Below, one piece after another: positions 4,579 to 21,561 of a DNA stretch of 64,000 bases (position 1 is its first letter; each line of letters begins with the position of its first letter). The translations under genes were made by a program, and so were the position numbers. The stretch is from IMG/VR virus record IMGVR_UViG_3300028045_001344, positions 64,001 through 128,000 of that record; one strand, 5' to 3'. The stretch comes from a virus. The notes beneath the pieces were generated by a model. The model saw only the letters and a program-made list of their open reading frames with translations. It had not been told where the DNA came from and did not search any database.

Positions 4579-4599
4579 GTTTTTATATTCCTCTTTTCT

Positions 4600-4607: not shown

Positions 4608-4608
4608 C

Positions 4609-4815
4609 TTAATAATCATTTGATTCTTGTTCTTTTCGTTTTTGCCGCTCAATTTCAATTAGGCGACGTTGATGCTTTTCACGCCTTTTCTCGGATGGCT
4701 TTTTATAATAACGCCTTTCGAGATATTCTTCAATTATGTTGTCTTTTTTCATCTTGCGAGTAAACCTCTTAATTAAGTTTTCAGAGGTTTCATTTCTTCT
4801 AATTTTTATTTCCAT
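4609..4815 (-). CDS. rpsU: Phage-encoded ribosomal protein bS21
   Basis: 68 aa, basic; E.LIKRF.RK.....I..E...RRYYKKPSEKRR matches the bS21 signature. Confidence 0.85.
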   Translation of the reverse strand: MEIKIRRNETSENLIKRFTRKMKKDNIIEEYLERRYYKKPSEKRREKHQRRLIEIERQKRKEQESNDY

Positions 4816-4825
4816 TTGTTTCTTC

Positions 4826-5239
4826 TTATTCCGCTAAATGGGACCAGCCCCCAGTCATTTTTACTAGACCGTCAATATTTACACCAGCATCACTCGGGTC
4901 TTTATCCCGCAACGCACCATATTTATTGGATTGACCACCACCGCTTGACGGCATCGGTTTGGTTCCTTCAAAGATTCCATGTAGCCCAGTTGCTTTTTGT
5001 AGCGAGTCTTTCACTTCCTTGAGTTGATTCTTTGCTTCAATGAGGCTTTGGCTTTGTTGTTGTTTTTTCGGGGTTATGGGTTGGGCGATGTGTTGCATCT
5101 GTGGGGCTGCATTAACATTTCCTAATCCCTGAACTACTTCAGTTATAAGGCCCGCAAGAACACCTTCTTCAAAAATAGACTCACGGATACATTCTTTAAT
5201 GAGGGGCTTTAAGATTTCCTTCAACTCTGATTTTTTCAT
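4826..5239 (-). CDS. Hypothetical head-region protein
   Basis: 137-aa ORF; N-terminus MKKSELKEILKPLIKECIRE resembles the LK.I+KE leader family. Confidence 0.6.
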   Translation of the reverse strand: MKKSELKEILKPLIKECIRESIFEEGVLAGLITEVVQGLGNVNAAPQMQHIAQPITPKKQQQSQSLIEAKNQLKEVKDSLQKATGLHGIFEGTKPMPSSGGGQSNKYGALRDKDPSDAGVNIDGLVKMTGGWSHLAE

Positions 5240-5514
5240 ATTTCATCCCGAAGTTTTTTTTCATTTTTTAATTCTCTGAGTTCATTAGTTTTTCCGATCA
5301 GGTAATCTTTCCCTTGTATTTTTAACATAGCATCGCTTAAGGAATCAATTTCAGATTTAAGTTGTTCAATTTCATCTTCAACATTCCGATTGCCCCACTT
5401 TAATAATCGTCTGGATGCTTCATCTGTGGCAAATTGGGCATCCAAGATAACAAGCTCTTCGGCATCAATTTCATCGATTAAATTTTGTAATCGTTTTATA
5501 CGCTTTTCAGCCAT
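5236..5514 (-). CDS. Hypothetical coiled-coil protein
   Basis: 92 aa, GGAG RBS, ATGA overlap with the next gene. Confidence 0.6.
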   Translation of the reverse strand: MAEKRIKRLQNLIDEIDAEELVILDAQFATDEASRRLLKWGNRNVEDEIEQLKSEIDSLSDAMLKIQGKDYLIGKTNELRELKNEKKLRDEI

Positions 5515-5552
5515 TATTTTTCTCCAATAATATCATTTAATATTTATTTTTT

Positions 5553-6545
5553 TCACATCATCTTCTTTCGATTATCAATCTCTTCTTTGATGATTTCTTG
5601 TAGTCTTTCTTTAGAAATTGACATAAGGTTGCGTGATTCTGCGACGGGAGGTTGACCAACGGGATCTTCTTCAGGTTTTCCCCAGGGAGGACTAACATCA
5701 ACATGTCCCTTCTCAAGAGCATTTACTGCGGCTGGAATATCAGGTTCATCGATTACTGGCATATCAGGTCTTGCTGGTGCCCAACTTGGAGTTGACATAT
5801 TAATGCCGCCAAGATTATTAACCATTTTTGTAACCGCAGACTCAACTGCATCTTCACCTTGTTTGCCTGTCCAATCTTGTAAGAGCTTCATTACTTGTTC
5901 CGGGGTTCGTCCTTGCCATCCCTTGAAGGTGTCTGGTACTGTGTCTTGACTGATTCCTCCCTTTGCCATTGATGTTAACATATCTCTAATAGGTTTTTCC
6001 TTAAATTGTTCAAAACCGCCCGAAGCTGGTTTCCCTTTCATCACTTGAAACTGACCCTTTGTCATCGCATTTAAAACCGCAACAAGTTGTTCACCTGGAA
6101 AGTCAACATCATAACCACCAACCGATTGAGATGGATCAACCATCGCTGTAGCAATCCATCTATGATGTCCATCCATGATATATTTATCACTACTAATGAA
6201 AGCGCCAAGATCGCCGCCCGGTTCCATTTTACTTGTAGGATCGATCATATGTAAAACAAATGTCATGGCTTTACCAATATTCATGCTAGATTGAGAAGGA
6301 CTTAAATCTTGAACTGCTGCCACTCCGCTTGGTTTGTAATCCACATTAATTTCGTCATCGGCAGGATCTTGATCAAACTTTGAATGACCATGAGTTACGG
6401 CAACTTCAGCCGCAGCGGGATCTACATCAGATAATTTCATCGGGAAGCGTGCTGGATCAAACTCGTCGGGGTTTGCTTTTTCTCCTAATAGATCTTCCGT
6501 TTCTTCTTTGATCATTCGTTCTAAATCTTCTCGTGATAGTTTCAT
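5553..6545 (-). CDS. ParB/sulfiredoxin N-terminal-domain protein with leader motif
   Basis: LSPSQ and ISSDKYIMDGHHRW match ParB-N motifs; leader MKLSREDLERMIKEE, with a second copy MSISKERLQEIIKEE at the C-terminus. Confidence 0.7.
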   Translation of the reverse strand: MKLSREDLERMIKEETEDLLGEKANPDEFDPARFPMKLSDVDPAAAEVAVTHGHSKFDQDPADDEINVDYKPSGVAAVQDLSPSQSSMNIGKAMTFVLHMIDPTSKMEPGGDLGAFISSDKYIMDGHHRWIATAMVDPSQSVGGYDVDFPGEQLVAVLNAMTKGQFQVMKGKPASGGFEQFKEKPIRDMLTSMAKGGISQDTVPDTFKGWQGRTPEQVMKLLQDWTGKQGEDAVESAVTKMVNNLGGINMSTPSWAPARPDMPVIDEPDIPAAVNALEKGHVDVSPPWGKPEEDPVGQPPVAESRNLMSISKERLQEIIKEEIDNRKKMM

Positions 6546-6549
6546 CTCT

Positions 6550-7149
6550 TTAGTCTCCTATAATATCGTTCAGTATTCTATTGATTCGATCAGCCTTTGA
6601 ATATGGTTGTTTTATTCTTGATTCGGTAAGGCTCATAAATGCACCTTGCGTTGAGGGTTCAGAAACTATATCAAAACATATCAACTGAAGATCTTCTTCT
6701 ACAATCGTTTTCCCTTGGCTTTCGTGAACAGACCCCAAAGCCCGAGACGAAATCCCTAAAGTAACCCCGTCGTTTACTAGAGATTCTAAAATTTTTCCTG
6801 CTGGTGTAGATAATACTTTAATTTTTCCCTTCAAGTCTTTACCTTCCCACCACAAATCAGTAACCATGTGAGAAGCATTTTTAAGATTGACAACTGAATC
6901 TTCTGGATGGTCTAATTCTCCACAAGCCCGGTTCTCCTTGACTGTCTTCATATAGTTTTTGACTTCTCTTTCCAGAACTAGTTTAGGATAGACACGACCA
7001 TTACCGTTTTGCTCATCTACTCTCTGCATAATTCCTGATAAGAAAGTTGCGCCATTCTTAACTTGTATCTTTTCCGCCTCTGTTAATAAATCTTCACAGA
7101 CTCCGCCCGCGCACAATTCATAATATTCTCTAAGAAGGTACTTGCTCAT
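6550..7149 (-). CDS. Prohead core protease (T4 gp21-like)
   Basis: NGNGRVYP, GELDHP (catalytic His), GISSRALGS (catalytic Ser), DIVSEPS. Confidence 0.93.
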   Translation of the reverse strand: MSKYLLREYYELCAGGVCEDLLTEAEKIQVKNGATFLSGIMQRVDEQNGNGRVYPKLVLEREVKNYMKTVKENRACGELDHPEDSVVNLKNASHMVTDLWWEGKDLKGKIKVLSTPAGKILESLVNDGVTLGISSRALGSVHESQGKTIVEEDLQLICFDIVSEPSTQGAFMSLTESRIKQPYSKADRINRILNDIIGD

Positions 7150-7153
7150 TTTA

Positions 7154-8362
7154 TTATCTCCCGTCTAATCCATTCACCGACAAGACCGCAACAAGCCCTG
7201 GTAAGTTCTCTTTGATATATACCCCAGAAAACAAGGTTTCGCACCTTCCACCGACATAAGACACGGCTGCGTCTAAGTGTTTGCTAATCTCTGGATCTGT
7301 TGCCATTTCCGGTGTAATAATTAGTAGCATCGTTCCTGTAACGGACTTGCCTTTAGGCATGGGACATGGAGAACGCTTAATACAATTTTGATAAATAGCT
7401 GCGCCAAGTTTAGGATCTGCTGGATTTGCTATCATAGTCGAGCCCAAAAACATTCTTCCCTCGGTAGCCAAGCAACGCCCAAGATCTTTTGAATCAAAGG
7501 TTTGAACATAAGACTTTTCCGAAGCTAGTTTTAAAACTTGATGAAACAACTTAGCAAATGTAGAATTCGCTACGGGATACATATTTAGGATACCAACCTT
7601 TCCGCGAAGCAATTGTGTCTGTCTCTCGTTATCAATAAGAATATGAGGATGTGGTGCTACATCATTAGCTAGGGAGAGCGCATTTTTAGAGATAGTGTGG
7701 TTAAGAGATTCTTGCGCCGTGGGCCAAGATATAATATAAACCACTTTACCTTCACCCTGCACCGAACTAAGATACCGCTCGAACACTTCATGAAGTTCTA
7801 CGCAGGAACTTCCGGTTCCTCCGCCTCCGCCAGCTAAAACAAAAATCCAATCCACTTTTCCAAGTTTGGTACGAATAGCGTCTTCAACAACCGCACTGTT
7901 TTCACTAAACACTTTCTTTCCATAAGCGACATTTTTGGCTACGCCATCAGCGTCAGGAATAAGAATTAAGTGGTCCGCGTCTACACCTTCCGGCTGATCC
8001 TTTTCAGTAGTATTGAGAAGTAGTGTTTTATTAAATCCTAAATCTAAAAAAGCTTTGGCTAGTTTTCCACCAGCACCACCAACACCAATAAAGGCACAGT
8101 TTAAAGCAGACACCGCTTCATTCTCGGGAAGTTGCTCATCATGCTGAATTGTGATTTCCTCACCATAGTGCTCAATAAACCCAAAGTCTTCGGCATCAAA
8201 AGTTTCAAAAGAGGTGCTAGTCACTGGCTCATCATTTGGTAAACTAAAAGCATCTGCTTCTGTGATTAATTCCTCTTTTACTTCTTCTTCCGGTTTTGTT
8301 TCTTCAATTTCACCAGCAGTAATTTCTTCGTCTACATCTGGTTCTTGCTCGTCGTCGATCAT
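7154..8362 (-). CDS. Tubulin/FtsZ-family GTPase (PhuZ/TubZ-like) with acidic N-terminal extension
   Basis: FIGVGGAGGK, LLLNT, GGGGGTGSS (tubulin signature), LIDN, FDSKD (T7-loop DxxD); first ~85 aa very acidic. Confidence 0.9.
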   Translation of the reverse strand: MIDDEQEPDVDEEITAGEIEETKPEEEVKEELITEADAFSLPNDEPVTSTSFETFDAEDFGFIEHYGEEITIQHDEQLPENEAVSALNCAFIGVGGAGGKLAKAFLDLGFNKTLLLNTTEKDQPEGVDADHLILIPDADGVAKNVAYGKKVFSENSAVVEDAIRTKLGKVDWIFVLAGGGGGTGSSCVELHEVFERYLSSVQGEGKVVYIISWPTAQESLNHTISKNALSLANDVAPHPHILIDNERQTQLLRGKVGILNMYPVANSTFAKLFHQVLKLASEKSYVQTFDSKDLGRCLATEGRMFLGSTMIANPADPKLGAAIYQNCIKRSPCPMPKGKSVTGTMLLIITPEMATDPEISKHLDAAVSYVGGRCETLFSGVYIKENLPGLVAVLSVNGLDGR

Positions 8363-8365
8363 TTC

Positions 8366-8479
8366 TTATCTCCATTCATTATAAAAAGCGGGCGCAACCC
8401 GCGTGACTATGCATCCTGATTTGCATCGACGCACTGGTCGAAGCATACGAGATTTGCTTGTCCATAGATTTTCTAACAT
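8366..8479 (-). CDS. Small 37-aa ORF MLENLWTSKSRMLRPVRRCKSGCIVTRVAPAFYNEWR
   Basis: My translation. The ATG overlaps the upstream stop (TAATG) and the stop lies 3 nt before the tubulin ATG, filling the gap exactly. Confidence 0.55.
   Translation of the reverse strand: MLENLWTSKSRMLRPVRRCKSGCIVTRVAPAFYNEWR
8383..8402 (-). terminator. Intrinsic terminator-like hairpin upstream of tubulin
   Basis: Minus strand GCGGG-TTGCG-CCCGC-TTTTT: 5-bp all-GC stem plus U5. Confidence 0.5.
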
Positions 8480-8799
8480 TATTTTTCACCCCACATTTTA
8501 AAGTTTATTCCTTGATCTCCAAAGATCATGTTTCCAATATATGAAGTTCCAGAACTCACGCACCCCAAAATAAGTGCCGTGGTTATGGAATATTCATAAG
8601 TAAATAGTTCTGTTTGTCCGTTTATCGCCCACAAAAACCATCCGACATGAAACCCTATACACATGGGACAATGAAACAAATGATATGATGGTCTGATTTT
8701 GTCAAATATTTTAGCATACACTAAGAGTTGCGTTAAGCCATAAGCGGCTAAAACAAAATATACTAGGCTCATGAATAATAGCCGGAATAATATGTCCAA
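8479..8799 (-). CDS. Small membrane protein, DUF1360-like
   Basis: Hydrophobic helices; LFHCPMCIGFHVG CxxC motif. Confidence 0.6.
   Translation of the reverse strand: MDILFRLLFMSLVYFVLAAYGLTQLLVYAKIFDKIRPSYHLFHCPMCIGFHVGWFLWAINGQTELFTYEYSITTALILGCVSSGTSYIGNMIFGDQGINFKMWGEK
8601..8608 (-). promoter_or_regulatory. Candidate late promoter ACTATTTA (intragenic)
   Basis: Exact motif, about 120 nt upstream of the 37-aa ORF and tubulin; could be chance. Confidence 0.3.
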
Positions 8800-9329
8800 G
8801 GATTATTTGGGTTGATTGAGCCCTTGTCTGGTGACTCAGGAACTTCCCCTAATACAGTCGAATCCTCTGCGTCGGGCTCCGTATACCAATCATCAATTTC
8901 TTCTTCGTATCTTTCTTCTGCTTCAAACTTTGGTCTTTCTTGTTCTATGAATTGATAAGTAGAAAGAAGCACGACTTGTGTAGCATCTACACCCTCGTCA
9001 ATGGCTTCAGGATAGCTCCCCTGAATGCTCGCATATACATCACCCGCATGGACTGATGATCTTTCGACGACGCCTTTTTGTGACAGGAAATTGAAATAAT
9101 TATTTTGAATCTGGTAGATTTCATCACTCATTTCATTTTTTGGAAATGTAATAATCTTCTTGTTTGCGTGGTCAATAACAATATCCAAGTCCTTATGATC
9201 CAAAACCATAATTTTTCCATCAACGGTCTTACGAGCAATCAAAGAAATCTGTGGGTGTGTTTCACTTTCTTCTTTGATTTCTTCTGCGCTCAAGGCATCA
9301 GGAGTAACATTTATTTTAATTGACGCCAT
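8769..9329 (-). CDS. Hypothetical protein
   Basis: 186-aa ORF overlapping its neighbours in the head operon. Confidence 0.65.
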   Translation of the reverse strand: MASIKINVTPDALSAEEIKEESETHPQISLIARKTVDGKIMVLDHKDLDIVIDHANKKIITFPKNEMSDEIYQIQNNYFNFLSQKGVVERSSVHAGDVYASIQGSYPEAIDEGVDATQVVLLSTYQFIEQERPKFEAEERYEEEIDDWYTEPDAEDSTVLGEVPESPDKGSINPNNPWTYYSGYYS

Positions 9330-10152
9330 CGGATTTTATCTCATGTATCAAGCCTTGTACCTTGATCACTTTTTGTATCATTTCCTTTTTTGGTTCTTCA
9401 TTTTTAAATTCTTCTAAGGATTCTATTATGGCTTGAACCTTTTTTGTCATAGCCGCATCACTTATAATTTCTTCCATCATTAAAGATTTTTTCAAATCCT
9501 TTTTCAGTCTAGATATCTCCTCGTTCAAATATAACTTTAGACGAAGACCGTTGTCCACAAAGGAAGAAACAAATTTAGATAATAGTTCCTTCTGTTCTTT
9601 CAGGAGTTCACCAGAGTATTCAGCATTAAACTTTTTAGTAAAAGTCTTATATACCAAGTTGTCAATAGGAACCATTTGATCTTTGTCTTTAGCTTCAGAT
9701 AAGATCATTCCTTTTATGATCTGATTCTCTAATAGAACTTTTGTTTTTATGGTACTGCGTTGATTAAAGATTTGATAAATAGTAGCAAGAGATTTATAGT
9801 TAGGAACAAAATTATTGAAAGTGTCTTCTGGAAGCATTTTCTTGATTTTGCGAACTAGTTTATTTTGTTCCGATAATAGTCGTTTCTTATCAATAACCTC
9901 TCTCTGCTTAAGCACTTCCGATAATATTCTCTCTGCCGTGCGAGGGTGAGCATTTTGAGTTTTTGTCAGCGAATGATATAGTTTCAATTCTTGATGGAGA
10001 GAAGTATCAAACCTAAAAGATTCTTTTATCAGAGAGGCTATTTGTGTTTTGGAACTCTCATCTTTTTTCAAGATTGCTTTTGTTAATTCTATAACCAGAG
10101 CCTCATATAAAAAGGCACTATTCTTTTTCTTGTTGTGTTTAAATTTTACCAT
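9316..10152 (-). CDS. Helical protein directly downstream of portal (possible prohead core/scaffold-associated)
   Basis: Track ORF 9316..10185; likelier start is MVKFKHNKKKN at 10152. Function is inferred from position only. Confidence 0.55.
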   Translation of the reverse strand: MVKFKHNKKKNSAFLYEALVIELTKAILKKDESSKTQIASLIKESFRFDTSLHQELKLYHSLTKTQNAHPRTAERILSEVLKQREVIDKKRLLSEQNKLVRKIKKMLPEDTFNNFVPNYKSLATIYQIFNQRSTIKTKVLLENQIIKGMILSEAKDKDQMVPIDNLVYKTFTKKFNAEYSGELLKEQKELLSKFVSSFVDNGLRLKLYLNEEISRLKKDLKKSLMMEEIISDAAMTKKVQAIIESLEEFKNEEPKKEMIQKVIKVQGLIHEIKSDGVN

Positions 10153-12061
10153 TTTTTGCTTCTTCTCTTTTCTCCAAATTCTCAATAATTTGTTGGATTT
10201 CTCTACTATTACTTAAAACTTCGTTTTCTACCTTGGAGTCCTCAGTATAATTAGTTTCGGTATTTTCCTTTATCCCTTTGTATTGTTGCTTAAATCCATC
10301 AAGACCTGGGAAAACATTTCTTTGTGTATTCTTTCCCATCTCGGAAGCCACTTTCCCCATCATGTTTTTTCTTCTTCCGGCTTCTTCTCGATCATCATGT
10401 TTTTCTGGGATGTATGCTTTTCCTTTATCCTTTGGTGTATGGTGGGGCTTTGGGTTTTGAGTTCTCCACTTCATATCATTGCGCTTCCCCGGTTCAGCCA
10501 ATAACGTTTCGTCTTCGCCGCTGTCTTCATCATCCCCGAGGTCATCACCGAGGTCATCACCGAGGTCATCACCACCAAGGTCATCACCAAAGTCGTCGCC
10601 GCCTTCTGCGTCTCCGCCTTCTTCAGCGGTGCCCTCAAGCATGGCTTCAAATCTCTTGTCATAAAACATTTCGCGCTGGTTGCGAACAATTTCTTCATCG
10701 GATAGATTGAGAAGATTTTTTGCTACCCATTGTTTACTAAAGTATCCTTCAGTCGCAGCACCAGCAATTTCGAATTTTGTTCTCCAATGCTCTAATTCCT
10801 GAAGTTCAGCAATTTTAGAAGGGCTATTGAGATGTAATTTAAAAGATAATAAATCCTTTCCTTTGAAGCCTAGTGTATACAAATGAACAACCGCAATCTT
10901 TTCCAGTTCTGATACCACACTTCTTTGAAGCCTTTGTATTGTTCTGGCAAAACGCACATCCTTTTGTGCAAGGGTAGTTTTTTCGTCACCACCTTCATCT
11001 GATTGCGTAAGGTATGATGGTGGGACTTTCAACGCAGAAAATAGTTTATCACGCAAATATTTTACATCGTCCACATCACCCGTGTAAGTTCCGCCTGGAA
11101 GACTTTCAACTCTCGTATTAGAAGCTCCTCCGCGAACAGGGATAAAATAATCTTCATCGGTGCTCATGGGGTTGTAGCGCAAATCAACACGACCAGTTTG
11201 AGAATCAATAACTTGATTTCTTTTCATCTGTGTTACAATGCGTTGCATATGCTGTTCAATTTCCTTTTCAGGAATTCCACCAACATCCACATAAAAAACA
11301 CGTCGCTCGGGTGAGCGCACAACACGATAAGCCATCATCGCATCTTCTAATAGTTGTAGTTGTCTCCAAATGCGTCGGCAAGGCTCCAAAACAGAAGTTC
11401 CATAAGGAGCATATTTATCGTTTCCTAAAATTCGGAAATGTCCTATTTGCCAATTCTCAAAAGTAAGGCCACCACTGTTCCATTGGAATTGAACATAGTT
11501 GGGGTTTGTTTTATCTTCACCCTCCATTCTTTCTACTTCCATAGACGGAAGTCCAATGACGTTGGTGATTCCCAATTCTTCGTTAATATCAAGATATAGA
11601 AACATATCCCCAAATTTGCACATTGATCGACACCATCCAAAAATATTAAACTCAATATTCAAAACATCATAAAACAGTTGTGATAATATCTCTTTGATTT
11701 CTTCGTTGGGACAATTGATTAGAAGTAGTTTTTGAATTGCTGACGATGTGGTCATTTCATCTGCATAGATGTCTAACCCTGAAGCAATCTCGGGCATGTA
11801 TTCCATTTGATCAAAATCAATATATCGCTCCGCTCGGTTGACGTTTTGATATGCGGCTGTTCTAAAATTATCAAAAGGATTATGAGTTTGCTTTTTAAAG
11901 CTCAAGCCACCAGGAGATGTAAAACTATATTTATTCAACTGACGACGCTTAAGCTGACGTGGGTTTTGCTTTCGCCGATCAGTAATAGGACCAGATAAGA
12001 GTCTAGTTAGTGCGCGGTACAATGGGTTCTGATCATTGTTGGGGTTTCTTTTATTTTCCAT
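10139..12061 (-). CDS. Portal protein (T4 gp20-like)
   Basis: LLEDAMMAYRVVRSPERRVFYVDVG, DEDYFIPVRGG, VESLPGG, DVKYLRDKLFSALKVP, DVRFARTIQRLQ. Confidence 0.95.
   Translation of the reverse strand: MENKRNPNNDQNPLYRALTRLLSGPITDRRKQNPRQLKRRQLNKYSFTSPGGLSFKKQTHNPFDNFRTAAYQNVNRAERYIDFDQMEYMPEIASGLDIYADEMTTSSAIQKLLLINCPNEEIKEILSQLFYDVLNIEFNIFGWCRSMCKFGDMFLYLDINEELGITNVIGLPSMEVERMEGEDKTNPNYVQFQWNSGGLTFENWQIGHFRILGNDKYAPYGTSVLEPCRRIWRQLQLLEDAMMAYRVVRSPERRVFYVDVGGIPEKEIEQHMQRIVTQMKRNQVIDSQTGRVDLRYNPMSTDEDYFIPVRGGASNTRVESLPGGTYTGDVDDVKYLRDKLFSALKVPPSYLTQSDEGGDEKTTLAQKDVRFARTIQRLQRSVVSELEKIAVVHLYTLGFKGKDLLSFKLHLNSPSKIAELQELEHWRTKFEIAGAATEGYFSKQWVAKNLLNLSDEEIVRNQREMFYDKRFEAMLEGTAEEGGDAEGGDDFGDDLGGDDLGDDLGDDLGDDEDSGEDETLLAEPGKRNDMKWRTQNPKPHHTPKDKGKAYIPEKHDDREEAGRRKNMMGKVASEMGKNTQRNVFPGLDGFKQQYKGIKENTETNYTEDSKVENEVLSNSREIQQIIENLEKREEAKNGKI
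10248..10255 (-). promoter_or_regulatory. Candidate late promoter ACTAATTA
   Basis: In the portal 3' end, about 95 nt upstream of the next start. Confidence 0.4.
10536..10595 (-). repeat. 12-bp tandem repeats encoding (GDDL)n in the portal acidic tail
   Basis: gaggtcatcacc repeated; protein GDDFGDDLGGDDLGDDLGDDLGDD. Confidence 0.85.
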
Positions 12062-12063
12062 TT

Positions 12064-13653: not shown

Positions 13654-13659
13654 ACACAA

Positions 13660-13667
13660 TAATTAGT
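13660..13667 (-). promoter_or_regulatory. Candidate late promoter ACTAATTA
   Basis: 6 nt upstream of terminase ATG 13653; no SD in between. Confidence 0.45.
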
Positions 13668-14505
13668 TTTTATTTGAGACTTGTTTTAGCTTCTTTTGTA
13701 AAGGAACGATAACTTTTTTTAATAAAGTAAGTTCGCTTCCCGATGCCAGATTTCCCTGTTGGGCATATTTTCTTAGAATCTTGACAACATTTTGAATCAA
13801 ACCTCGCTCCTGATCTGAAATACCTTTGTTTAGCTCGGATGCTGCGGAAAGGTCTGCGCGTTGCGATGTCGTTGCTGATGAACTCGAAACCTTTTCCTTT
13901 CCCAGTTCTAGTTCTTCCGCTTCATTGATTTTTTTTTTAGGTTCTTCGTCTCGCTTTCCAGACACATTTTCTGGCTTCTTGGTTTTTGGGAACTTATCTT
14001 TTCCAAGACCAAGCCAATTCTTGATGCTCGTATCTAGGCGTTCTTCTACCGTGTGCCCTAGCTCGGGTTCATCTGGGATTCCACCAATCTTATATTCTTG
14101 TTGGGCTTGTACCCAAGACCTTACCTTGCTCGTAGTTTGAACAATCATATGGGGCTCACTGTCTTTTGGCTTGGTGAGAGTAAGTCCATTACCTGTAATC
14201 TTTTTATATTCCTTCTTTAGAAAGTTGGCAATATCTTGGAGTCGTTGTTCGATCTCTCCTTCATAATCACCCTTGTAGACTTCACGCAAGGTGACTTCAC
14301 CCTGATACTTGATGGTGAGCATATTGCCGTGAAAGGTTACACCAAATCCATCCATGACTCTCTTATCGAGAATTGGATGACCCTCCTCTCTTTGAAGACC
14401 AACCTTGAGTGGTTCTCCATTTTCATCAAGCGCACCGTCAAAAGCGTTTGATGCCGCTTGCTGGATACCTTGGATAATTTCTAGGACATTTGATTTTTCA
14501 GCCAT
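13663..14505 (-). CDS. Hypothetical protein upstream of terminase
   Basis: 280-aa ORF in operon. Confidence 0.65.
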   Translation of the reverse strand: MAEKSNVLEIIQGIQQAASNAFDGALDENGEPLKVGLQREEGHPILDKRVMDGFGVTFHGNMLTIKYQGEVTLREVYKGDYEGEIEQRLQDIANFLKKEYKKITGNGLTLTKPKDSEPHMIVQTTSKVRSWVQAQQEYKIGGIPDEPELGHTVEERLDTSIKNWLGLGKDKFPKTKKPENVSGKRDEEPKKKINEAEELELGKEKVSSSSATTSQRADLSAASELNKGISDQERGLIQNVVKILRKYAQQGNLASGSELTLLKKVIVPLQKKLKQVSNKN

Positions 14506-14837
14506 TTTTCTTCTCTTCCTTCAACGTGTTGAATATAACATTTAAAGCAACATTTAAACTTTGCCATATATAAATCATCCCTTCCGTGAAAGGAATAAAT
14601 ATTACATACTGGGCAAGTGCGCTCTGATTCTTTTATAAATAGTTTCTTGGGCAACAAAACACCATCAACCTCCACCTTCTCTTTGGTCTTTTCGTTTCGG
14701 GATGCCTCTTTGATTTGAGATAGGTAATCTTTTTCTTTTTTTTGATCCCAATTATTTTTAGGATTCTGTATTGCTTCATCACCATACTTCTCTTGTATGG
14801 CTTTCTCAACTTTTATAAGATGATCGGGATCTTTCAT
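14481..14837 (-). CDS. Hypothetical zinc-binding protein
   Basis: CPVC...CCFKC. Confidence 0.6.
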   Translation of the reverse strand: MKDPDHLIKVEKAIQEKYGDEAIQNPKNNWDQKKEKDYLSQIKEASRNEKTKEKVEVDGVLLPKKLFIKESERTCPVCNIYSFHGRDDLYMAKFKCCFKCYIQHVEGREEKWLKNQMS

Positions 14838-15301
14838 CTCTTTACTATTTCGCTAGCGGCGAAAAAGATTGCGATTGATGTAATCATTCCCACTGTTATT
14901 CCACCGCCAAACCACAGTATATCATAATCTCCAACATCAGTTGCAATTTTTTGTAAGCGCAAGATTTCCTCATCTTGAGCCGAGACAATGATTTTGTATT
15001 TCTTTTTCTCTATCTTGAGTTCGCTAGAAAGTAAATCATTGTCTCTCGTACACTTTGCTTGTAGTATGTCCGTTTCATATTTTACTTTTAGTTTGCACTC
15101 TTGTTCTGCTCGCGCTTTTTCTGCTAATAGTTTTGCAGTTGCTTCTATTGAGAATAGTGTTCCTGTAAATGGTGCGACATCACCTTCGTTTAGAAAAGTA
15201 AATTTCGCACTTGTGCTCGTGGTTGTTTGGGCGTTGGCTATGACCGACGAGGAAATAAAAATAATACTAATCAGTATTGCTATTGTTTTTTTTAGGTTCA
15301 T
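14834..15301 (-). CDS. Exported coiled-coil protein with C-terminal TM helix (possible spanin-like component)
   Basis: Signal peptide MNLKKTIAILISIIFISSSVIANA, coiled coil, C-terminal hydrophobic helix; no lipobox Cys. Confidence 0.45.
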   Translation of the reverse strand: MNLKKTIAILISIIFISSSVIANAQTTTSTSAKFTFLNEGDVAPFTGTLFSIEATAKLLAEKARAEQECKLKVKYETDILQAKCTRDNDLLSSELKIEKKKYKIIVSAQDEEILRLQKIATDVGDYDILWFGGGITVGMITSIAIFFAASEIVKR

Positions 15302-15665
15302 ATTCAAATCCAAACTCTAGTGTAATTCTTTCCGCCATTTGATCGGGATCATCAGTCCACTCTTTTATGACAGACTTTACAAATTTCTTTTCTTTCTTGT
15401 CTAGTATCTTATTTTCTTTAGAATACTTTTCTTCAATTTTTTTAATGGCATTATCATATTCTTTATCGATCCACTCTTTCTCTTTCTTTTTATTTATCTC
15501 AGCCGCTTCGATTGCGTCTAGTTGTTTCTTGTGAGAGTCATCAGCGGCTTTGATAATCTCCTCAATCTTGCTTTCTTTAGAACGAAAAACTAAAGCGACT
15601 ATTATGAGAACAGGTATATACCAATACGACTTTAGGAAAGACCAGATTTTTTTAAGTGCGATCAT
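15267..15665 (-). CDS. N-terminal TM plus coiled-coil protein (i-spanin-like)
   Basis: YWYIPVLIIVALVF TM followed by a charged helical region; overlaps the downstream membrane gene. Confidence 0.45.
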   Translation of the reverse strand: MIALKKIWSFLKSYWYIPVLIIVALVFRSKESKIEEIIKAADDSHKKQLDAIEAAEINKKKEKEWIDKEYDNAIKKIEEKYSKENKILDKKEKKFVKSVIKEWTDDPDQMAERITLEFGFEYEPKKNNSNTD

Positions 15666-15684
15666 TTTTTATTTCAATACCAAT

Positions 15685-16296
15685 TCAGTCTTCGCCCTCA
15701 TAACCAGTCACAGTTCGACCATCATTTTGATTTTTAAGAAAATCCCGCAACTGATCTGTAACATCCCAATCATCAGGAATATCCCTCTCAAAGTTACCTT
15801 CGTCCTGCATTGTAGAGACAAGCCACCTAACAAACGCTTTTTCGATCTTATCAGATATGATCTCCGATACTGAATCGTCCATATCTAATTTTCCTAAATT
15901 CCCTTGGGGTCGTTGGCCATCGGGCACCTGATACATTCCCAGAACAAATTCAGAAACCTCATCGGAATTAGAAAATATTTCTTTTGCGGCTGCAACACCG
16001 GGAACAAAATTTGTCAAAATTCCTAAAACTTTTTTTCTATTTTTATATTCTAAGGTACACTTTAACAGAGCATGTAATTCACCAAATGTTTTAACATCCC
16101 CACTGGATTGTAGGGTAGATGGAACTGTCTTCGTACAATAATCATCCTTTAGTTTATCATCGGCTTTATCCCACCCTTTGCCAAATAAATCCCGAAGATT
16201 TTTGACCTTATCTAGTGCTCTCGCTGTACGACTGGGCGCTTCGGCAAGCTTGTCGGCTTCTAAATAAGAACGCCAATTTTCCATTAAGATTTTCAT
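15685..16296 (-). CDS. Leader-bearing hypothetical protein (MKILMENWRSYLE)
   Basis: Likely start at 16296 (ATGA overlap with the upstream stop), not 16350; leader shared with 20664..21503. Confidence 0.7.
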   Translation of the reverse strand: MKILMENWRSYLEADKLAEAPSRTARALDKVKNLRDLFGKGWDKADDKLKDDYCTKTVPSTLQSSGDVKTFGELHALLKCTLEYKNRKKVLGILTNFVPGVAAAKEIFSNSDEVSEFVLGMYQVPDGQRPQGNLGKLDMDDSVSEIISDKIEKAFVRWLVSTMQDEGNFERDIPDDWDVTDQLRDFLKNQNDGRTVTGYEGED

Positions 16297-16691
16297 TTGT
16301 TCTTCTTTTTGTTTTTTTCCGCCCACGCTATTCGAAATGCTGCGGGGCAATCATCTTTACCGCCGCATTCTTGATCCTTCAACGCCTTTACTTTGTCTTC
16401 CATTCCGGGTGGGGCTACTTCTTGGAGAGGGGTTGGTTGAAAACTATCAACAACATCATTAATGGCTGTCGTGATTTTCTCTCTTAGTTCTTTGGCATCC
16501 CTAGTGTCCAACATCTTAAACTTCAAACGAATTATTTTAGTGATCGCAGAATCCATACTCGTGCCTGGGACTGACTTTTTTTGCGGAGGGATTGGGGTGT
16601 GTCCGCTAGGAGAACCTGGGTCCATAAAGCCTGAATCCTCTTGGAGTTCTTCTTGAATAATTCTCTTAAGTTGTGACCTTGTGAGTTTCAT
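16293..16691 (-). CDS. Leader-bearing hypothetical protein (MKLTRSQLKRIIQEE)
   Basis: 132 aa, AAGGA RBS, two LQE sites, basic C-terminus. Confidence 0.7.
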   Translation of the reverse strand: MKLTRSQLKRIIQEELQEDSGFMDPGSPSGHTPIPPQKKSVPGTSMDSAITKIIRLKFKMLDTRDAKELREKITTAINDVVDSFQPTPLQEVAPPGMEDKVKALKDQECGGKDDCPAAFRIAWAEKNKKKNK

Positions 16692-16694
16692 TTT

Positions 16695-16943
16695 TTATTC
16701 CTTGATATAATCATCCCTAGCGATCCGCACAGCCCAAAAGTCGCTTTGAGGTTTATACTCCACAACTAACTTATCTCGTTGCGGGTGCTTCTTAATGAAC
16801 TTCTTTGCATCCTTCTCTGTGTAAAACAATTTTAGTGTTACCAAGGCTGCGCTTCGGGCTGCTGCTGCCGAAATATCCGCCATACGAGACTCTGAGGATT
16901 CCTCTATAATAATTCTCTTAAGTTGTGATCTTGTAATTTTCAT
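16695..16943 (-). CDS. Leader-bearing hypothetical protein (MKITRSQLKRIIIEE)
   Basis: Likely start at 16943; leader DNA is 36/39 identical to that of the next gene. Confidence 0.65.
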   Translation of the reverse strand: MKITRSQLKRIIIEESSESRMADISAAAARSAALVTLKLFYTEKDAKKFIKKHPQRDKLVVEYKPQSDFWAVRIARDDYIKE

Positions 16944-16944
16944 T

Positions 16945-17133
16945 TTAGTTTCCGTGTTTCCAGTTAGTCGCAATATCTGCGATGCCCTGTATTCCTATGT
17001 AGCCCAACGCAATAGCAACCCATTGATCGCCACTGATCGGACCTAGATATAAAAAGAGAGTGGCTAAAGAGAAAACCGTAAATTTTCTCGATACCACTTT
17101 CTCTAAAGCTTTATCAACAAATGATGAGTTCAC
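16945..17133 (-). CDS. Small two-TM holin-like protein
   Basis: 62 aa; SRKF followed by two hydrophobic helices. Confidence 0.45.
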   Translation of the reverse strand: MNSSFVDKALEKVVSRKFTVFSLATLFLYLGPISGDQWVAIALGYIGIQGIADIATNWKHGN

Positions 17134-17360
17134 TCTTTTCCTTTGTTAAATAAACTCAGTAAAACAATGAGCGATAACAAACCAACAAAACCACTTGATC
17201 CCATTGATTCAATTAATTTAACAACGTTGCCTACAACGCCCATTCCAAAAATACCTGCTCCATAAATTACTTCAACAAGAATTGCCAAAGCAAGCAAATT
17301 CATTACCAAACCTGTAAGTCCACTAACACCTTCATTAACTGTTTTTAAAATATCTTTCAT
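17130..17360 (-). CDS. Small membrane protein
   Basis: Start probably ATG 17360 behind AGGAGG; two to three hydrophobic helices. Confidence 0.6.
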   Translation of the reverse strand: MKDILKTVNEGVSGLTGLVMNLLALAILVEVIYGAGIFGMGVVGNVVKLIESMGSSGFVGLLSLIVLLSLFNKGKE

Positions 17361-17384
17361 ATTCACGTACCTCCTACGCAAATA

Positions 17385-17392
17385 TAAATAGT
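17385..17392 (-). promoter_or_regulatory. Candidate late promoter ACTATTTA
   Basis: Intergenic, just after the Mre11-Rad50 stop and before the AGGAGG RBS. Confidence 0.6.
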
Positions 17393-17395
17393 TAG

Positions 17396-20300
17396 CTACG
17401 CAGTAACATTCGCATATCCATCTTTCTTTTCTATAGTGATGATTGAGTCCGCAGCATCTTTTAAGTTATCAAGATGAGAAATTAAAATAACAGTTTTGAA
17501 AATAGAAGTTGTAATATCGAGAATACGCACAAAGCCTTCCATTCTTTCAGCATCTAAAGCAGTACCGGGCTCGTCTAAAATAAACAATTGTGATTTGGGT
17601 AATGAAGAAATATTTGTGAACGCCAAACGTATTGCCATCGCAGCCACAGTTTTTTCCGCACCACTAGCCATTTCTAATGGACTAGGATCACGATCTGGTT
17701 GTTGGATATAAATATCTAGACGATTGTCGTCCGTCTCAAAGAGCACTTGGAAATCTACTACATTCGCAAGTATCTTGGAAATCTCATTATTAATTGTTGG
17801 CAAACTCTTTTTGATTATGTTATATGCAATACCGTTCGGGTGCATACAACGCATATACAGATCGTGTGCTTCATAATCATTCTTTAGGTTTTCGCACTTG
17901 GTCTTTTCTACTTCGAGATTTTGAATTCTATGTTCGCTAAACCCATGAAGTTTATAAAGCCTTAACAATTCACTTTCGCATTCCTCTAGATTGATACCGC
18001 ACTTCCTAAGCACAGAAATCTTTAAGTTCTTATCTTTAACAATCCCTTCTAAATCTTCTATGACCTCCTTATTATCATCATAAAACTTTTCTTTCTCTTG
18101 GAGTTCTCTTATTTCGTGTTCTATGATCAATTTCTTTGAGGATAGGTTCTCTATCAAAAGTTCATCAGTAGGTATCTGATTCTCTAAATCTTTTTTGAGT
18201 TTCAGTAGATCCTCAAACTTGGCAAGATGGCTCTCTACATTATCAATTTCTAAAGAATTCATTTCCACTTGAATTGATTGGGACTCCTCCTGTTTAGTTT
18301 GTTGACCAATTTGAACTAATGGAATTTTATTTTTGGCTTCATACGCATCACGAATAAATTTACAATGTGAAAATTCAGATCCACAAGGAACCTCTTTCAA
18401 TAACTTCGCTCGCGTCTCAAATTGAGATAATTCAGTTTTACTGGCTTTTAGATCTAAAGTGATATTCACTAGTTCTTTTTCGAGTTCTAGATATTTTCGC
18501 TTCTGTGAAAATAGAAAATCCTCATCAAACGATTTAATGAAATCGTTAGCTTTAGTAATTTTGTTTTTATTTTTGATGTTCTCATCAGTCTTGTGTATTA
18601 TGTCTTTTTCGTATAGTAACAACCTCTTCTCTGACTGAGATATGGAATTACGAATATTAAGAATATCAATGATTTCTGTGGGGGCTGATTGAATTTTATC
18701 TTCTAGATCTGAAATCTGATCCTTTAGAACAACAGCCTCCTTCTTTAATATCTCACAACTATTTTTTCTTTTCATCGTCGCGGCTTCGTTATCAAGAAGA
18801 TCTTTATGGGCTATCCTTATGTCTTCATCATAATCAACCGCATCAAGAACTTTAATCTCGGATTTGATATCGGCTGCATCTTCCTTGGCTGTCTTAAACT
18901 TTTTATCAAAGATTTCTAAATCTAAAAACTTTGCCAATATTTCTTTACGCCTTGTAGAGCCTTCATTAATAAATGCTAGCGCACCCAATTGAGAACTCAT
19001 AGAAGTTATTAAGAAATCGTCAAGACTTCCAAAATATTTCATAATATTCTTGTCGGTGTCTGAGCGAGTAAGCCCATTTAAAGATTCTTCCTTTTCAGTC
19101 GCTATGTCCCAAGATTTAAAGTCTACAACAGTTTTAGCCTCAACTGTTTCTGCCCCTTTTAGCCGCTTGAGATACTTGCTGGATTCTCTCCTGATTGTAT
19201 ATACTTTGTTGCCTCGCCTAATCTTAACCTGACCAAAGCCTTCGGTCTTGTTGTTATTGATTATGTTGAGGTTCTTGCGTGAATTCTTTGAAATTGAGTT
19301 GTAGATCGTATACAAAAGTGAATCAACGATACTGGACTTGCCTGAAAAGTTACGACCATAAATCCCAGTAATTCCACTATAATTGGTAAAGTCTATGCGA
19401 TTGTCTTCACCATAATTAAACAGGTTGCTCCACTCTAGTTCCAAGATTTCAAAATCCACATTACGATAAGTCTCGTCATTGTTCTCGACAATCTGTTTAT
19501 ATTTTTTATTTAGATCCCGGATCTTCTTTTCAAGAGCTTCATCAATTTTATAGTCTTCTAGATATTCGCCAATTAGTTTTTCTTGAACTACAAGATCTCT
19601 GAGGTTTTCTTTTTGAAAGGAGTCTCCTATCTCTACACCGTTGGTAAACGTAGATTTATTCACGACCGTAATTGATTCTGGCTTGTGCCGTTTTTTTGCA
19701 ACATCCACAGCCTTCTTTAGTGCTATAGCAGAAATACTATTCTCTACCACCAATCGCAAACGAGCACCTTCAGGAACAGAAGTTTCGGGAACTTTACCAT
19801 CCGTGGTAAGAGGTAGTGAGATAAATGGTTTTGGATTTGTAAGAGTAACGGGTCTAACAGTAAAATCTTCTTTACTTTCAATATCCCAAATCAAGAAACC
19901 TTTACAAGTTCCTTCGCCATGATTTTGTTGGATAGTGCTACCAGCATAGCGAACGCGGCCGGCTTTGTCCATAATTTGATTTGTGAGATGAATATCTCCC
20001 AACATCGCATAATCAAATTTATCAAAGATCGAAATGTCATGCTCGCCAATATCCATCTTCCAGCCTATGTCTGTTTGACAACCACTAATGGAGCCATGAT
20101 AAAGAGCAATATTTATTTGATCAGGATTGGATGGCTCTTTCCAATTTTCTTCATCAAACACGCTCAACACGTTTAAGGTAAACTCGTGACCCATATCAAC
20201 TTCGCAAGAGTTCTTTAGTAAATGTAGGTTGGAATGATTAAGAGATTTTACGATTGGAGTGATTGCATCTTGTCTGCTTGTGTTTCTTAAGTTGCCGTCG

Positions 20301-20539
20301 TGATTGCCTAAGATGATATATGTTGGGGCAATCTCCGCTAAATTATAAAGAAAGTCAGAAGTCATCTCCACATATTCAGGAGAAATCTGTGTCTTGGTGT
20401 GGCATATGTCGCCACAATGAACAATATAATCCACCTTCTCTTTTCGGAGAGTTTCATATATTTTATTAAATATAATCTTATATTCGGTGTGATATTTGAG
20501 ATTGCGAATATGGGTATCCGCGATGTGAGCAAACTTCAT
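17396..20539 (-). CDS. Fused Mre11/SbcD nuclease and Rad50/SbcC ATPase (gp47-gp46 fusion)
   Basis: ADTHI, HCGD, LGNHD, YHG and GDIH phosphoesterase motifs; GRNFSGKSS Walker A; coiled coil with PCGSEFSHC hook; ASGAE signature; ILDEPG Walker B; ISH. Confidence 0.92.
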   Translation of the reverse strand: MKFAHIADTHIRNLKYHTEYKIIFNKIYETLRKEKVDYIVHCGDICHTKTQISPEYVEMTSDFLYNLAEIAPTYIILGNHDGNLRNTSRQDAITPIVKSLNHSNLHLLKNSCEVDMGHEFTLNVLSVFDEENWKEPSNPDQINIALYHGSISGCQTDIGWKMDIGEHDISIFDKFDYAMLGDIHLTNQIMDKAGRVRYAGSTIQQNHGEGTCKGFLIWDIESKEDFTVRPVTLTNPKPFISLPLTTDGKVPETSVPEGARLRLVVENSISAIALKKAVDVAKKRHKPESITVVNKSTFTNGVEIGDSFQKENLRDLVVQEKLIGEYLEDYKIDEALEKKIRDLNKKYKQIVENNDETYRNVDFEILELEWSNLFNYGEDNRIDFTNYSGITGIYGRNFSGKSSIVDSLLYTIYNSISKNSRKNLNIINNNKTEGFGQVKIRRGNKVYTIRRESSKYLKRLKGAETVEAKTVVDFKSWDIATEKEESLNGLTRSDTDKNIMKYFGSLDDFLITSMSSQLGALAFINEGSTRRKEILAKFLDLEIFDKKFKTAKEDAADIKSEIKVLDAVDYDEDIRIAHKDLLDNEAATMKRKNSCEILKKEAVVLKDQISDLEDKIQSAPTEIIDILNIRNSISQSEKRLLLYEKDIIHKTDENIKNKNKITKANDFIKSFDEDFLFSQKRKYLELEKELVNITLDLKASKTELSQFETRAKLLKEVPCGSEFSHCKFIRDAYEAKNKIPLVQIGQQTKQEESQSIQVEMNSLEIDNVESHLAKFEDLLKLKKDLENQIPTDELLIENLSSKKLIIEHEIRELQEKEKFYDDNKEVIEDLEGIVKDKNLKISVLRKCGINLEECESELLRLYKLHGFSEHRIQNLEVEKTKCENLKNDYEAHDLYMRCMHPNGIAYNIIKKSLPTINNEISKILANVVDFQVLFETDDNRLDIYIQQPDRDPSPLEMASGAEKTVAAMAIRLAFTNISSLPKSQLFILDEPGTALDAERMEGFVRILDITTSIFKTVILISHLDNLKDAADSIITIEKKDGYANVTA

Positions 20540-20547
20540 TACTTACC

Positions 20548-20575
20548 ATTATACCAGGAGATATGGTTAAGTCAA
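20548..20575 (-). promoter_or_regulatory. Sigma70-type promoter TTGACT-N16-TATAAT with extended -10 TG
   Basis: -35 at 20570-20575, -10 at 20548-20553, 8 nt before ATG 20539; no SD. Confidence 0.75.
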
Positions 20576-20579
20576 GAGA

Positions 20580-20603
20580 AAGTTTTGATTTAGTTAATTT
20601 CAT
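20580..20603 (-). pseudogene. Leader-only remnant MKLTKSKL behind a TAGGAG RBS
   Basis: ATG AAA TTA ACT AAA TCA AAA CTT matches the MK[LI]TRSQL leader, then runs into the sigma70 promoter; the frame stops at 20478. Confidence 0.6.
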
Positions 20604-20661
20604 TTGTTTCTCCTATTAAAACGAAAGTTTCTCCAATAAATAGTTGTTTAGAGAAGTAAAA
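20599..20661. repeat. 63-bp direct repeat, copy 2 (primase 3' end, ACTATTTA, RBS, ATG)
   Basis: 57/63 identical to 21499..21561, exactly 900 bp away. Confidence 0.9.
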
Positions 20662-20663
20662 CA

Positions 20664-21503
20664 CTACCCTTTATATAACTTATCAAAAAGGTTACTACCA
20701 CCATCGTAAAGCATTTCTTCTATAGTGTTTACAAGTTCTTCTGGTGTTGCATATGGGGAGCCACCTGAATATGCGCGATTGATAAATTCTTTTATAGAAG
20801 TTCTTGCTTTTTTTTGTAGCACACGAACTGGGGTGGCTGAAGACTTTGTAGAATAAACATAGTTGGATGCGGGGTCGGCTTTTCCTTTTCCCGTTTCGGG
20901 ATGTATATAACAATCATCTCCTTTCGGTTTTGTTTGTGGATCGTCTATATCGTCAAATTTTCTAGCTTTAATTTTTATTCCCGTCGCTCCGGTTCCTCTT
21001 GCAAGCCACTGTTTGTAGATATTTTGAGCGGGTTTTGAAAGAGCAAACCTATCCGCCATTAATCCCCCCGCTACTGACTTAGTATAAAGAAGTGCCGTAT
21101 CATACAGAAGTGGACCATACCCATTTCTTGCCGCGCTTCTCTTGATTGTAAATATTTTCTTACCAGCCGCAAAACACGGCACACCGCGTTCAGCCCATAT
21201 CTCCACATCGATGATTCCCTTAATGCTTTGAGAAATCTTTTTTTGGACTGTCTTATTTTCAAGTGGATCATTTTTCCGATTTTGTCGATGGAACATAAAC
21301 TGATCTTGCTCATCCCACTCGTCGAAATCACTAGGTTTGGGTTTCAATTTATTTTTTCCTATCGAATTTATAAACTCCTCTGTGTCAAAGAGTAACAAAT
21401 ACTTACCGTCCCTACTTGAGTTAATAAGCATACCCAAATTCGTAGTGTCGGTGACAGCTTCCTCGTTCAAATACTCACGCCAGTTTTCCATTAAAAGCTT
21501 CAT
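20664..21503 (-). CDS. Leader-bearing protein (MKLLMENWREYLNEE) with a probable GNAT-like fold
   Basis: SAARNGYGPLLYDTAL resembles the acetyl-CoA-binding R/QxxGxG motif, followed by LMAD...LSKPAQNIY; flanked by direct repeats. Confidence 0.55.
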   Translation of the reverse strand: MKLLMENWREYLNEEAVTDTTNLGMLINSSRDGKYLLLFDTEEFINSIGKNKLKPKPSDFDEWDEQDQFMFHRQNRKNDPLENKTVQKKISQSIKGIIDVEIWAERGVPCFAAGKKIFTIKRSAARNGYGPLLYDTALLYTKSVAGGLMADRFALSKPAQNIYKQWLARGTGATGIKIKARKFDDIDDPQTKPKGDDCYIHPETGKGKADPASNYVYSTKSSATPVRVLQKKARTSIKEFINRAYSGGSPYATPEELVNTIEEMLYDGGSNLFDKLYKG

Positions 21504-21561
21504 TTGTTTCTCTGATTAAAACGAAAGTTTCTCCAATAAATAGTTGTCTAAAGAAACAAAA
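21499..21561. repeat. 63-bp direct repeat, copy 1
   Basis: Spans the last primase codons (LDNYLLEKLSF*), ACTATTTA at 21537-21544, and ATG 21503. Confidence 0.9.

Follow-up and report, generated by a model that had tools for sequence, protein, structure and literature searches.

Two interchangeable N-terminal leaders on unrelated proteins of marine T4-like phages as candidate prohead-targeting propeptides

Our analysis concerns two short N-terminal leader peptides, A and B, which are shared by otherwise dissimilar proteins of an uncultured marine phage and which we propose to be targeting signals for the forming phage head. They are found in a stretch of 64,000 nucleotides (nt), here called the window, that comprises bases 64001-128000 of the 151,553-bp virus record IMGVR_UViG_3300028045_001344. 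The leaders are modular, end at a fixed hydrophobic-x-Glu junction, replace one another on orthologous proteins, and are linked to the gene for a gp21-type prohead protease. Because these tags end in the motif of the head-maturation protease, their most likely role is to bring proteins into the capsid as it forms. A mechanism similar to that of the T4 capsid-targeting sequence (CTS), i.e. targeting to the prohead followed by gp21-type cleavage, is the reading best supported by the sequences, and we consider it probable, if with considerable room for doubt. Hundreds of relatives likewise start many unrelated proteins with one of the two tags. The phage itself is a myovirus distantly resembling T4; judged by the large terminase, Flavobacterium phage immuto and Microcystis phage Mel-JY01 are the closest cultivable phages, at 45% identity, and a simple open reading frame (ORF) call places 144 of the 149 genes of the whole genome on the minus strand.

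Leaders conserved as peptides

The type-A leader has the consensus MKLLMENWRxYLxE and occurs 11 times in the genome, nine times in a contiguous array at genome positions 2246-8747 and twice in the window, at 16296 and 21503. The strict type-B consensus, MK[IL]T[KR]xxLKxIIxEE, is found three times, at genome position 2249 and, in the window, at 16691 and 16943 (Table 1). The seven N-termini quoted in an earlier note on this DNA are all present at their coordinates on the minus strand. When position-specific scoring matrices (PSSMs) were built from foreign loci only and then run on this genome, all N-terminal matches lay at ATG starts on the coding strand, and ~242,000 windows of a shuffled proteome gave no match and a maximum score below zero; the leader pattern is far beyond chance. 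Pairwise BLAST limits the similarity between leader proteins to the first ~15 residues, in line with the proposal of the earlier note that dissimilar proteins share their leader only; the sole body-level similarity is that between two A proteins that are true paralogs (A_2851 at genome position 2851 and A_w21503 at window position 21503; E 2e-15). At the DNA level, identities are somewhat lower than that note had counted (30/40 instead of 33/40 for the A pair of the window and 34/39 instead of 36/39 for its B pair), and they drop to 26-32% beyond nt 45. Pfam and PHROGs gave no match for nearly all leader proteins of this genome.

A codon-level analysis covered 103 A and 204 B leaders. Synonymous codons vary freely across contigs and are nearly saturated, with Arg9 and Leu12 of the A leader using six codons each; the DNA upstream of the leaders is unconserved except for the ribosome-binding site (RBS); and amino-acid entropy rises from 0.7 to 3.5 bits directly beyond E14 of A and E15 of B. 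The free synonymous variation, the unconserved upstream DNA and the abrupt end of residue conservation together argue that selection acts on the peptide, and conservation of the leaders as DNA only was rejected by this analysis.

IMG/VR was scanned with degenerate DNA patterns for MENWRx[FY]L and MKx[TS][KR]xxLKxIIxE[ED]. Among the matches listed, each pattern has more than 100 loci, both motifs lie almost exclusively at N-termini (255 of 283 occurrences of the B core are N-terminal with M at -7, and the few internal copies of the leader motif are rare), and 109 type-A proteins fall into 67 body clusters by BLAST once the leader is removed. Pfam domains in the type-A bodies comprise GNAT, NUDIX, NT5C/HAD, zeta-toxin/AAA kinase, PGDYG and cytidylyltransferase-like domains, among others, and the median length is 220 aa for type-A and 110 aa for type-B proteins. 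The earlier note had expected that leader profiles would find many N-terminal matches on diverse domains, co-occurring with a gp21-type protease, and this was borne out. CheckV completeness of the leader-bearing fragments mostly implies parent genomes of ~180-330 kb. In Mel-JY01 (L109, 60276-62718), three paralogs that are homologous to an ENWR-tagged body start with MIKL[KM]SL[LV]xEIISDRVWH instead, which may be a leader dialect of that lineage; the only body homologs seen in this phage start with MIKLKSLLQEII and have no ENWR tag.

Leader exchange and the hydrophobic-x-Glu junction

Leader exchange is seen on the ParB/Srx-like head-module protein of the window. This protein has 646 homologs, many with at least 50% identity; among the best 120 of these, 119 contain the DGHHR motif, at least 39 carry an A leader, at least 25 a B leader, P0062 a B-then-A hybrid, and others further variants. 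Whichever leader is present, the conserved body start (E/K/D)A(D/N)P stands directly after hydrophobic-x-Glu, as in the A-type example MKLLMENWRKFLVE followed by KADP and the extended B-type example MKLSREDLERMIKEETEDLLGE followed by KANP. An alignment of 30 sequences shows Glu22 in all of them and places the 14-residue A leader on residues 9-22 of the B leader. Because both join the same ParB-like body start, A and B are, by these alignments, functionally equivalent, interchangeable modules with a precisely defined boundary. Among 20 ParB-like orthologs that abut the protease gene, 11 have B and 9 have A. The N-terminus at 6545, which the earlier note had counted as a B leader, is indeed an extended B leader of 22 residues as judged by the orthologs, although it scores below 12 bits on the B PSSM. 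The same protein has a B-like helix near its C-terminus (aa 308-322, window 5580-5624; B PSSM 22 bits), and some orthologs have C-terminal tails that are B-like (ISKERLQEIIKEEL) or A-like (LIMERWRKLAGLL in P0044 and P0099), recalling the double propeptides of T4 Alt.

In AlphaFold2 (AF2) models of two leader proteins, the leader helix lies outside the folded body. The model of the ParB-like protein (predicted local distance difference test, pLDDT, 87) has a helix at residues 5-20, a body at ~30-290, disorder at 295-309 and a second helix at 312-329, and that of the 21503 protein has a helix at 4-12. The ParB-like protein has no Pfam match and no PDB sequence match, and the top Foldseek matches of its body are the weakly matching ParB N-domain, Atu1540 and sulfiredoxin (E 0.04-0.6); a homolog in Dickeya phage LIMEstone1 carries the annotation "confirmed structural protein". 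For the 21503 body, which has a conserved segment GWGPLLYD...A and no Pfam match, the top 50 VIA-align matches are all GNAT acetyltransferases, at Z scores of only 5.3-6.8 over model residues ~16-225, and Foldseek E values are at least 0.02. The labels GNAT-like and ParB-like, which the earlier note had given to these two bodies, are plausible at the fold level.

Among 130 A leaders that were chosen on residues 1-8 only (MKLL[MLIF]ENW), 110 have [LIVM]12-x-E14, most exceptions being shifted by one residue, and E14 is present in 200 of 204 B leaders, a position partly constrained by the search pattern. As background, [LIVM]xE occurs at 1.8% per position, and 25 of 137 non-leader genes have [LI]xE within the first 16 aa. 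The earlier note had seen L/I-x-E in every complete leader; the leader at 16296, however, has A instead of E at position 14, and the only L-x-E in it is L4-M5-E6.

T4 gp21 cuts after L/I-x-E, and the T4 CTS reads MKTYQEFIAE, with Y4, F7, I8 and E10. The same -6, -3, -2, 0 spacing is found in the leaders, as W8, [YF]11, [LI]12 and E14 in A and as L8, I11, I12 and E14 in B, and is a pattern match only. In the CTS of T4 internal protein III (IPIII), residues 4 and 7 serve targeting and residues 8 and 10 processing (PMC9026906). Moreover, the propeptide of the 606-aa major capsid protein (MCP; phrog_138, 7e-72), whose gene lies just left of the window, is a homolog of the T4 gp23 propeptide: LLSKWENTGLLEG aligns with LLNKWKPLLEGEG, with LLEG conserved, and LLRE/A lies 22 residues upstream of the VRR motif while the T4 cut site lies 36 upstream. 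Because of this homology, the specificity of the prohead protease is probably conserved relative to T4. A body homolog in Vibrio phage K566 with the CTS-like start MKKFNEFANELAE was considered as a bridge to T4 and dropped, as this leader occurs once in that genome.

Protease gene, head module and neighbouring features

The protease of the window, identified as a gp21 homolog by the earlier note, was confirmed as Peptidase_S77 with a score of 105 bits (curated cut-off 27); its catalytic-His motif is GELDHP, compared with GELNHP in T4 gp21, and its N-terminal LLRE parallels LLIE of T4 gp21. PF03420 is found in seven of eight A-bearing and in both B-bearing contigs of at least 90% completeness, the protease gene is present in 39 loci that were retrieved by the leader alone, and a leader gene often abuts it. 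In this clade the head module has the order portal > p278 > p186 > (membrane protein, tubulin-like) > protease > (ParB-like) > 137-aa protein > ... > scaffold > MCP, and 65 loci retain portal > p278 > p186 > protease in this order; in the window, the block of portal, p278 and p186 occupies 8769..12061 on the minus strand. Nearly all variable genes flanking the protease gene are leader genes. Of the 44 distinct ORFs located between the protease and the 137-aa gene, at least 36 begin with A or B, most of the remainder having extended A variants; upstream of the protease, a leader is found on essentially all genes of the variable slot. The A protein at 16296 and the B protein at 16691 have orthologs inside the head module of relatives: those of the former, found in L033, L031, L148, L216 and L208, all have A-type leaders and lie between p186 and the protease in L148 and L216, and that of the latter lies downstream of the protease in L033.

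The 137-aa protein belongs to the fixed part of the module. Its N-terminus, MKKSELKEILKPLIKE, had been taken for a loose B leader and is instead that of an orthologous head-module family; orthologs in ~38 loci beside the protease keep MxKxELKKxLKPLIKECIKE and always follow the protease or the ParB-like gene. The protein has no Pfam or PHROG match and is a candidate prohead-core protein. By analogy with T4 gp67/gp68, many small B-leader proteins beside the protease may be disposable prohead-core components and not injected effectors. The T4 prohead-core proteins gp67, gp68 and gp22 are small, encoded beside gene 21 and cut at several L/I-x-E sites; the genes for small B-leader proteins likewise flank the protease gene, the IDLIKEEK of T4 gp67 resembles the B core QIIKEE, and the N-terminus of T4 gp22, MLKEQLIAE, resembles the CTS. 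Unlike the T4 core proteins, the B-leader bodies are highly diverse, and PHROGs and Pfam detect no homology between the two. A scaffold-like acidic protein of 404 aa with 17 [LI]xE sites is encoded just left of the window.

Leader genes also share a promoter-like motif with virion genes. The motif ACTATTTA has 21 copies on the coding strand and one on the other, 15 of them within 120 nt upstream of a start, and precedes scaffold, head-tail adaptor and tail genes as well as the 21503 gene, the B, B, A operon and the A array at the left end; besides the copy listed in Table 1, copies in the window lie at 26241-26248, 21537-21544, 20637-20644, 14636-14643 and 4600-4607. This layout would fit co-expression of leader genes with virion genes. 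A T-rich/TTTG stretch is often seen ~15-20 nt upstream of ACTATTTA. The motif is a candidate phage promoter, loosely similar to the -33/-7 promoters of Bacteroidota, and as such would fit a Flavobacteria-type host.

Table 1 Features of the window (coordinates in the window; strand left empty where none applies)
Feature	Coordinates	Strand	Details
Type-A leader protein, 279 aa	20664..21503	-	Leader aa 1-14 = MKLLMENWREYLNE; PSSM 48.4 bits; GNAT-like body
Type-A leader protein, 203 aa	15685..16296	-	MKILMENWRSYLEA; PSSM 31.0 bits; body without assignment
Type-B leader protein, 132 aa	16293..16691	-	MKLTRSQLKRIIQEEL; PSSM 43.4 bits
Type-B leader protein, 82 aa	16695..16943	-	MKITRSQLKRIIIEES; PSSM 32.3 bits; body unrelated to neighbouring B protein
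Remnant B leader MKLTKSKL, 8 codons	20478..20603	-	Runs into TTGACT-N17-TATAAT ahead of SbcD-like gene
Promoter-like motif ACTATTTA	17385..17392	-	Heads operon of the B, B, A trio
gp21-type prohead serine protease, 199 aa	6550..7149	-	PF03420 at 4.4e-30; phrog_207 head maturation protease at 1.7e-53
ParB/Srx-like (DGHHR) head-module protein, 330 aa	5553..6545	-	Extended B leader aa 1-22 ending LLGE
Conserved head-module protein, 137 aa	4826..5239	-	Fixed N-terminus; nine [LI]xE sites
63-nt direct repeat, copy 1	20599..20661		Primase 3' end, ACTATTTA, RBS, ATGAA
63-nt direct repeat, copy 2	21499..21561		90% identity to copy 1; spacing 900 nt
Portal	10139-12061	-	phrog_213 at 1e-76
p278	9316-10152	-	Conserved head-module context
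p186	8769-9329	-	Conserved head-module context

Several neighbouring genes were noted in passing. Directly upstream of the protease, a tubulin/FtsZ-like protein of 402 aa (7154-8362, minus strand; Pfam Tubulin 2.4e-6, below the cut-off) has an acidic N-terminal region of 85 aa followed by GVGGAGGK and the signature GGGTGS, and its position is kept in the closest relatives (L334-L341, L366); a second tubulin-like candidate lies at genome positions 39565-40440. A membrane protein of ~97 aa with the motif YGLTQILVYGxIFxxIRP (8479-8772, minus strand) has no Pfam match, is kept between p186 and the protease in dozens of related loci, and may have a role in membrane-attached prohead assembly. A 68-aa homolog of ribosomal protein S21 (4609-4815, minus strand; phrog_21469, 5.8e-7) lies within the head gene cluster. 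Tail-fibre-like genes for proteins of 135, 355 and 1044 aa (3091-4578 and 1-3078, minus strand; phrog_9017 tail fiber at 2.7e-5 for the 355-aa protein) separate the protease-proximal head genes from the scaffold/MCP pair, a module that is contiguous in relatives. Finally, the tail/baseplate region has two giant ORFs, one of 3847 aa (33914-45457, minus strand) and one of 1960 aa (49154-55036, minus strand).

Model, rival explanations and implications

In our model, both leaders are forms of one prohead-targeting propeptide and can stand in for each other. Either of them would form a short amphipathic helix, N-terminal and occasionally also C-terminal, that docks the attached protein on the scaffolding core during prohead assembly, and the gp21-type protease would cut after the Glu of the terminal hydrophobic-x-Glu, freeing the mature protein inside the capsid. 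Some carriers, the ParB-like protein among them, would belong to the fixed part of the head module or be small core-like proteins whose genes lie beside the protease gene, and others would be variable enzymes, GNAT-like here and NUDIX, HAD/NT5C and kinase-like in relatives. Recombination in or close to the leader would add genes, remove them and change their tags. We infer docking, cleavage and retention in the virion by analogy with T4, and injection of the leader proteins would be pure extrapolation from that phage.

Mullaney and Black reportedly described in 1996 the CTS of the T4 internal proteins IPI, IPII and IPIII. The CTS of IPI-IPIII and the propeptides of Alt, which Alt carries at both termini, are removed by gp21 (PMC9026906, PMC3012670), and the internal-protein cargo is polymorphic and shuffled between relatives, as far as the work of Repoila (1994) is summarized in PMC3012670. 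The leaders described here resemble the CTS in that each is a short N-terminal peptide on unrelated proteins, ending in L/I-x-E, with hydrophobic or aromatic residues at -6 and -3, and the two systems also have in common a gp21-type protease in the genome, cargo that is polymorphic between relatives, and the possibility of propeptides at both termini. Unlike the CTS of 10 aa, leader A has 14 aa and leader B 16-22 aa, and their sequences differ from it; unlike T4, two interchangeable leader types occur within one phage lineage, 11 A and ~4 B leaders are found among ~149 genes compared with three to four carriers in T4, the bodies are for the most part acidic enzymes, where T4 has small basic cargo, and many carriers occupy slots beside the protease gene. 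In the giant phages phiKZ, 201phi2-1 and SPN3US, a diverged gp21 homolog cuts many different head proteins behind a Glu within a short motif, and large numbers of proteins are packaged (PMC5694885, PMC7411985, PMC10052503); to our knowledge, no single short tag that is portable and common to these propeptides has been described, whereas the leaders here are stereotyped 14-22-mers. The T4-type interpretation offered in the earlier note is retained as regards detachable modules, the gp21-motif ending, co-occurrence and linkage with the protease, and interchangeability, except that the 5239 protein falls outside the swappable set.

A number of observations weigh against prohead targeting and cleavage. 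The subfamily of the 16296 protein lacks the terminal Glu, and the 21503 gene lies between primase and SbcCD in a replication/recombination neighbourhood. Leader-protein bodies are mostly acidic (median pI 5.0-5.1 for both A and B), in contrast to the basic T4 internal proteins; bodies of the nucleotide-metabolism type (HAD, NUDIX) could work equally in the cytoplasm; and at least 11 cargo species per phage raise the question of capsid capacity. The leaders have no alignable similarity to the T4 CTS beyond MK and the pattern hydrophobic-x-x-hydrophobic-hydrophobic-x-E. No enrichment is seen for the T4 late promoter TATAAATA (7 coding-strand copies, 12 on the other strand), and ACTATTTA may not be a late promoter. 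A tblastn search of 50,697 cultured-phage records gave no match for the 21-aa leader, the full-length A_w21503 protein or a B-leader protein of L126, and neither a cultured relative nor a virion proteome or N-terminal sequence was found. Literature searches with the motif strings yielded no relevant paper.

If the leaders were instead uncleaved helices for docking or oligomerisation with a shared partner, neither removed nor a means of packaging, this would accommodate the C-terminal copies of the motif (the ParB-like tail and the tails of P0044 and P0099) and the rare internal ones, the amphipathic leader helices on acidic, enzyme-like bodies, and the 16296 subfamily without E14; candidates for the partner are the scaffold, in that case only while the head assembles, the ~100-aa membrane protein, the tubulin-like protein and a host structure. 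C-terminal copies fit cleavage too, because T4 Alt has propeptides at both termini (PMC9026906), and an uncleaved helix explains neither why all leader types meet the body exactly at an invariant Glu preceded by L/I at -2, nor the restriction to genomes with a gp21-type protease, and we regard it as unlikely. We give still less weight to a cytoplasmic signal unrelated to the capsid, such as a degron, a timing or stability tag or an export signal, which another factor would cleave or recognise. Many bodies do resemble cytoplasmic enzymes, and one leader gene lies among replication genes, but the leaders have no hydrophobic core typical of secretion signals, and such a signal leaves unexplained both the tight linkage to the protease and head module and the gp21-type motif.

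The shared 5' ends might also be DNA recombination joints or regulatory cassettes, like the mobile promoter-stem-loop cassettes of T4, with a functionless peptide. Leader genes do occur in tandem arrays, and within the genome synonymous-codon identity is somewhat above that expected (0.54 versus 0.43 for A and 0.65 versus 0.41 for B, with 10/12 for the adjacent B pair at 16691 and 16943). Moreover, the two copies of the 63-nt repeat flank the GNAT-like A gene, with the B remnant behind this gene, which looks like the scar of a cassette insertion. The repeat lies upstream of the leader, reaching only ATGAA, and the near-saturated synonymous sites across contigs, fixed residues and unconserved upstream DNA are not what recombination joints would leave; recombination probably moves leader cassettes without explaining the conservation of the peptide, and we consider a DNA-only origin very improbable. 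A near-consensus sigma70-type promoter, TTGACT-N17-TATAAT (20545-20580, minus strand), lies directly upstream of the SbcD-like gene and overlaps the B-leader remnant. That the leader proteins are full-length paralogs of one or two families, with the leader merely their best-conserved part, has hardly any probability left: the A_2851/A_w21503 pair and the orthologously conserved N-terminus of the 5239 protein are of this kind, but for the whole set BLAST, the 67 body clusters, unrelated Pfam folds, the GNAT-like versus ParB-like fold, and the different leaders on the one ParB-like ortholog family refute it.

Returning to leaders as prohead-targeting propeptides, it is tempting to speculate, though we hold this wider view only tentatively and think it rather doubtful in its entirety, that marine T4-like phages pre-load their capsids via a two-tag address with at least a dozen enzymes each, drawn from hundreds of families (e.g. 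GNAT, NUDIX, 5'-nucleotidase/HAD, 2H-phosphoesterase-like, zeta-kinase-like and ParB-like) exchanged as cassettes and freely re-tagged between A and B, and that these are injected together with the DNA as a ready-made arsenal for host takeover and counter-defence. If true, capsid targeting of the T4 type would not be limited to three internal proteins of coliphages but would be a general and expandable delivery system in some of the most abundant phages of the ocean. The A/B swaps on a single ortholog show where the tag ends as a functional unit, and this knowledge, again if true, would be useful for engineering protein-loaded capsids beyond T4. A 14-residue motif would then predict which genes of phage dark matter encode virion-packaged, possibly injected proteins, and would thus provide a sequence-only handle on the early host-takeover and anti-defence factors of uncultured viruses.

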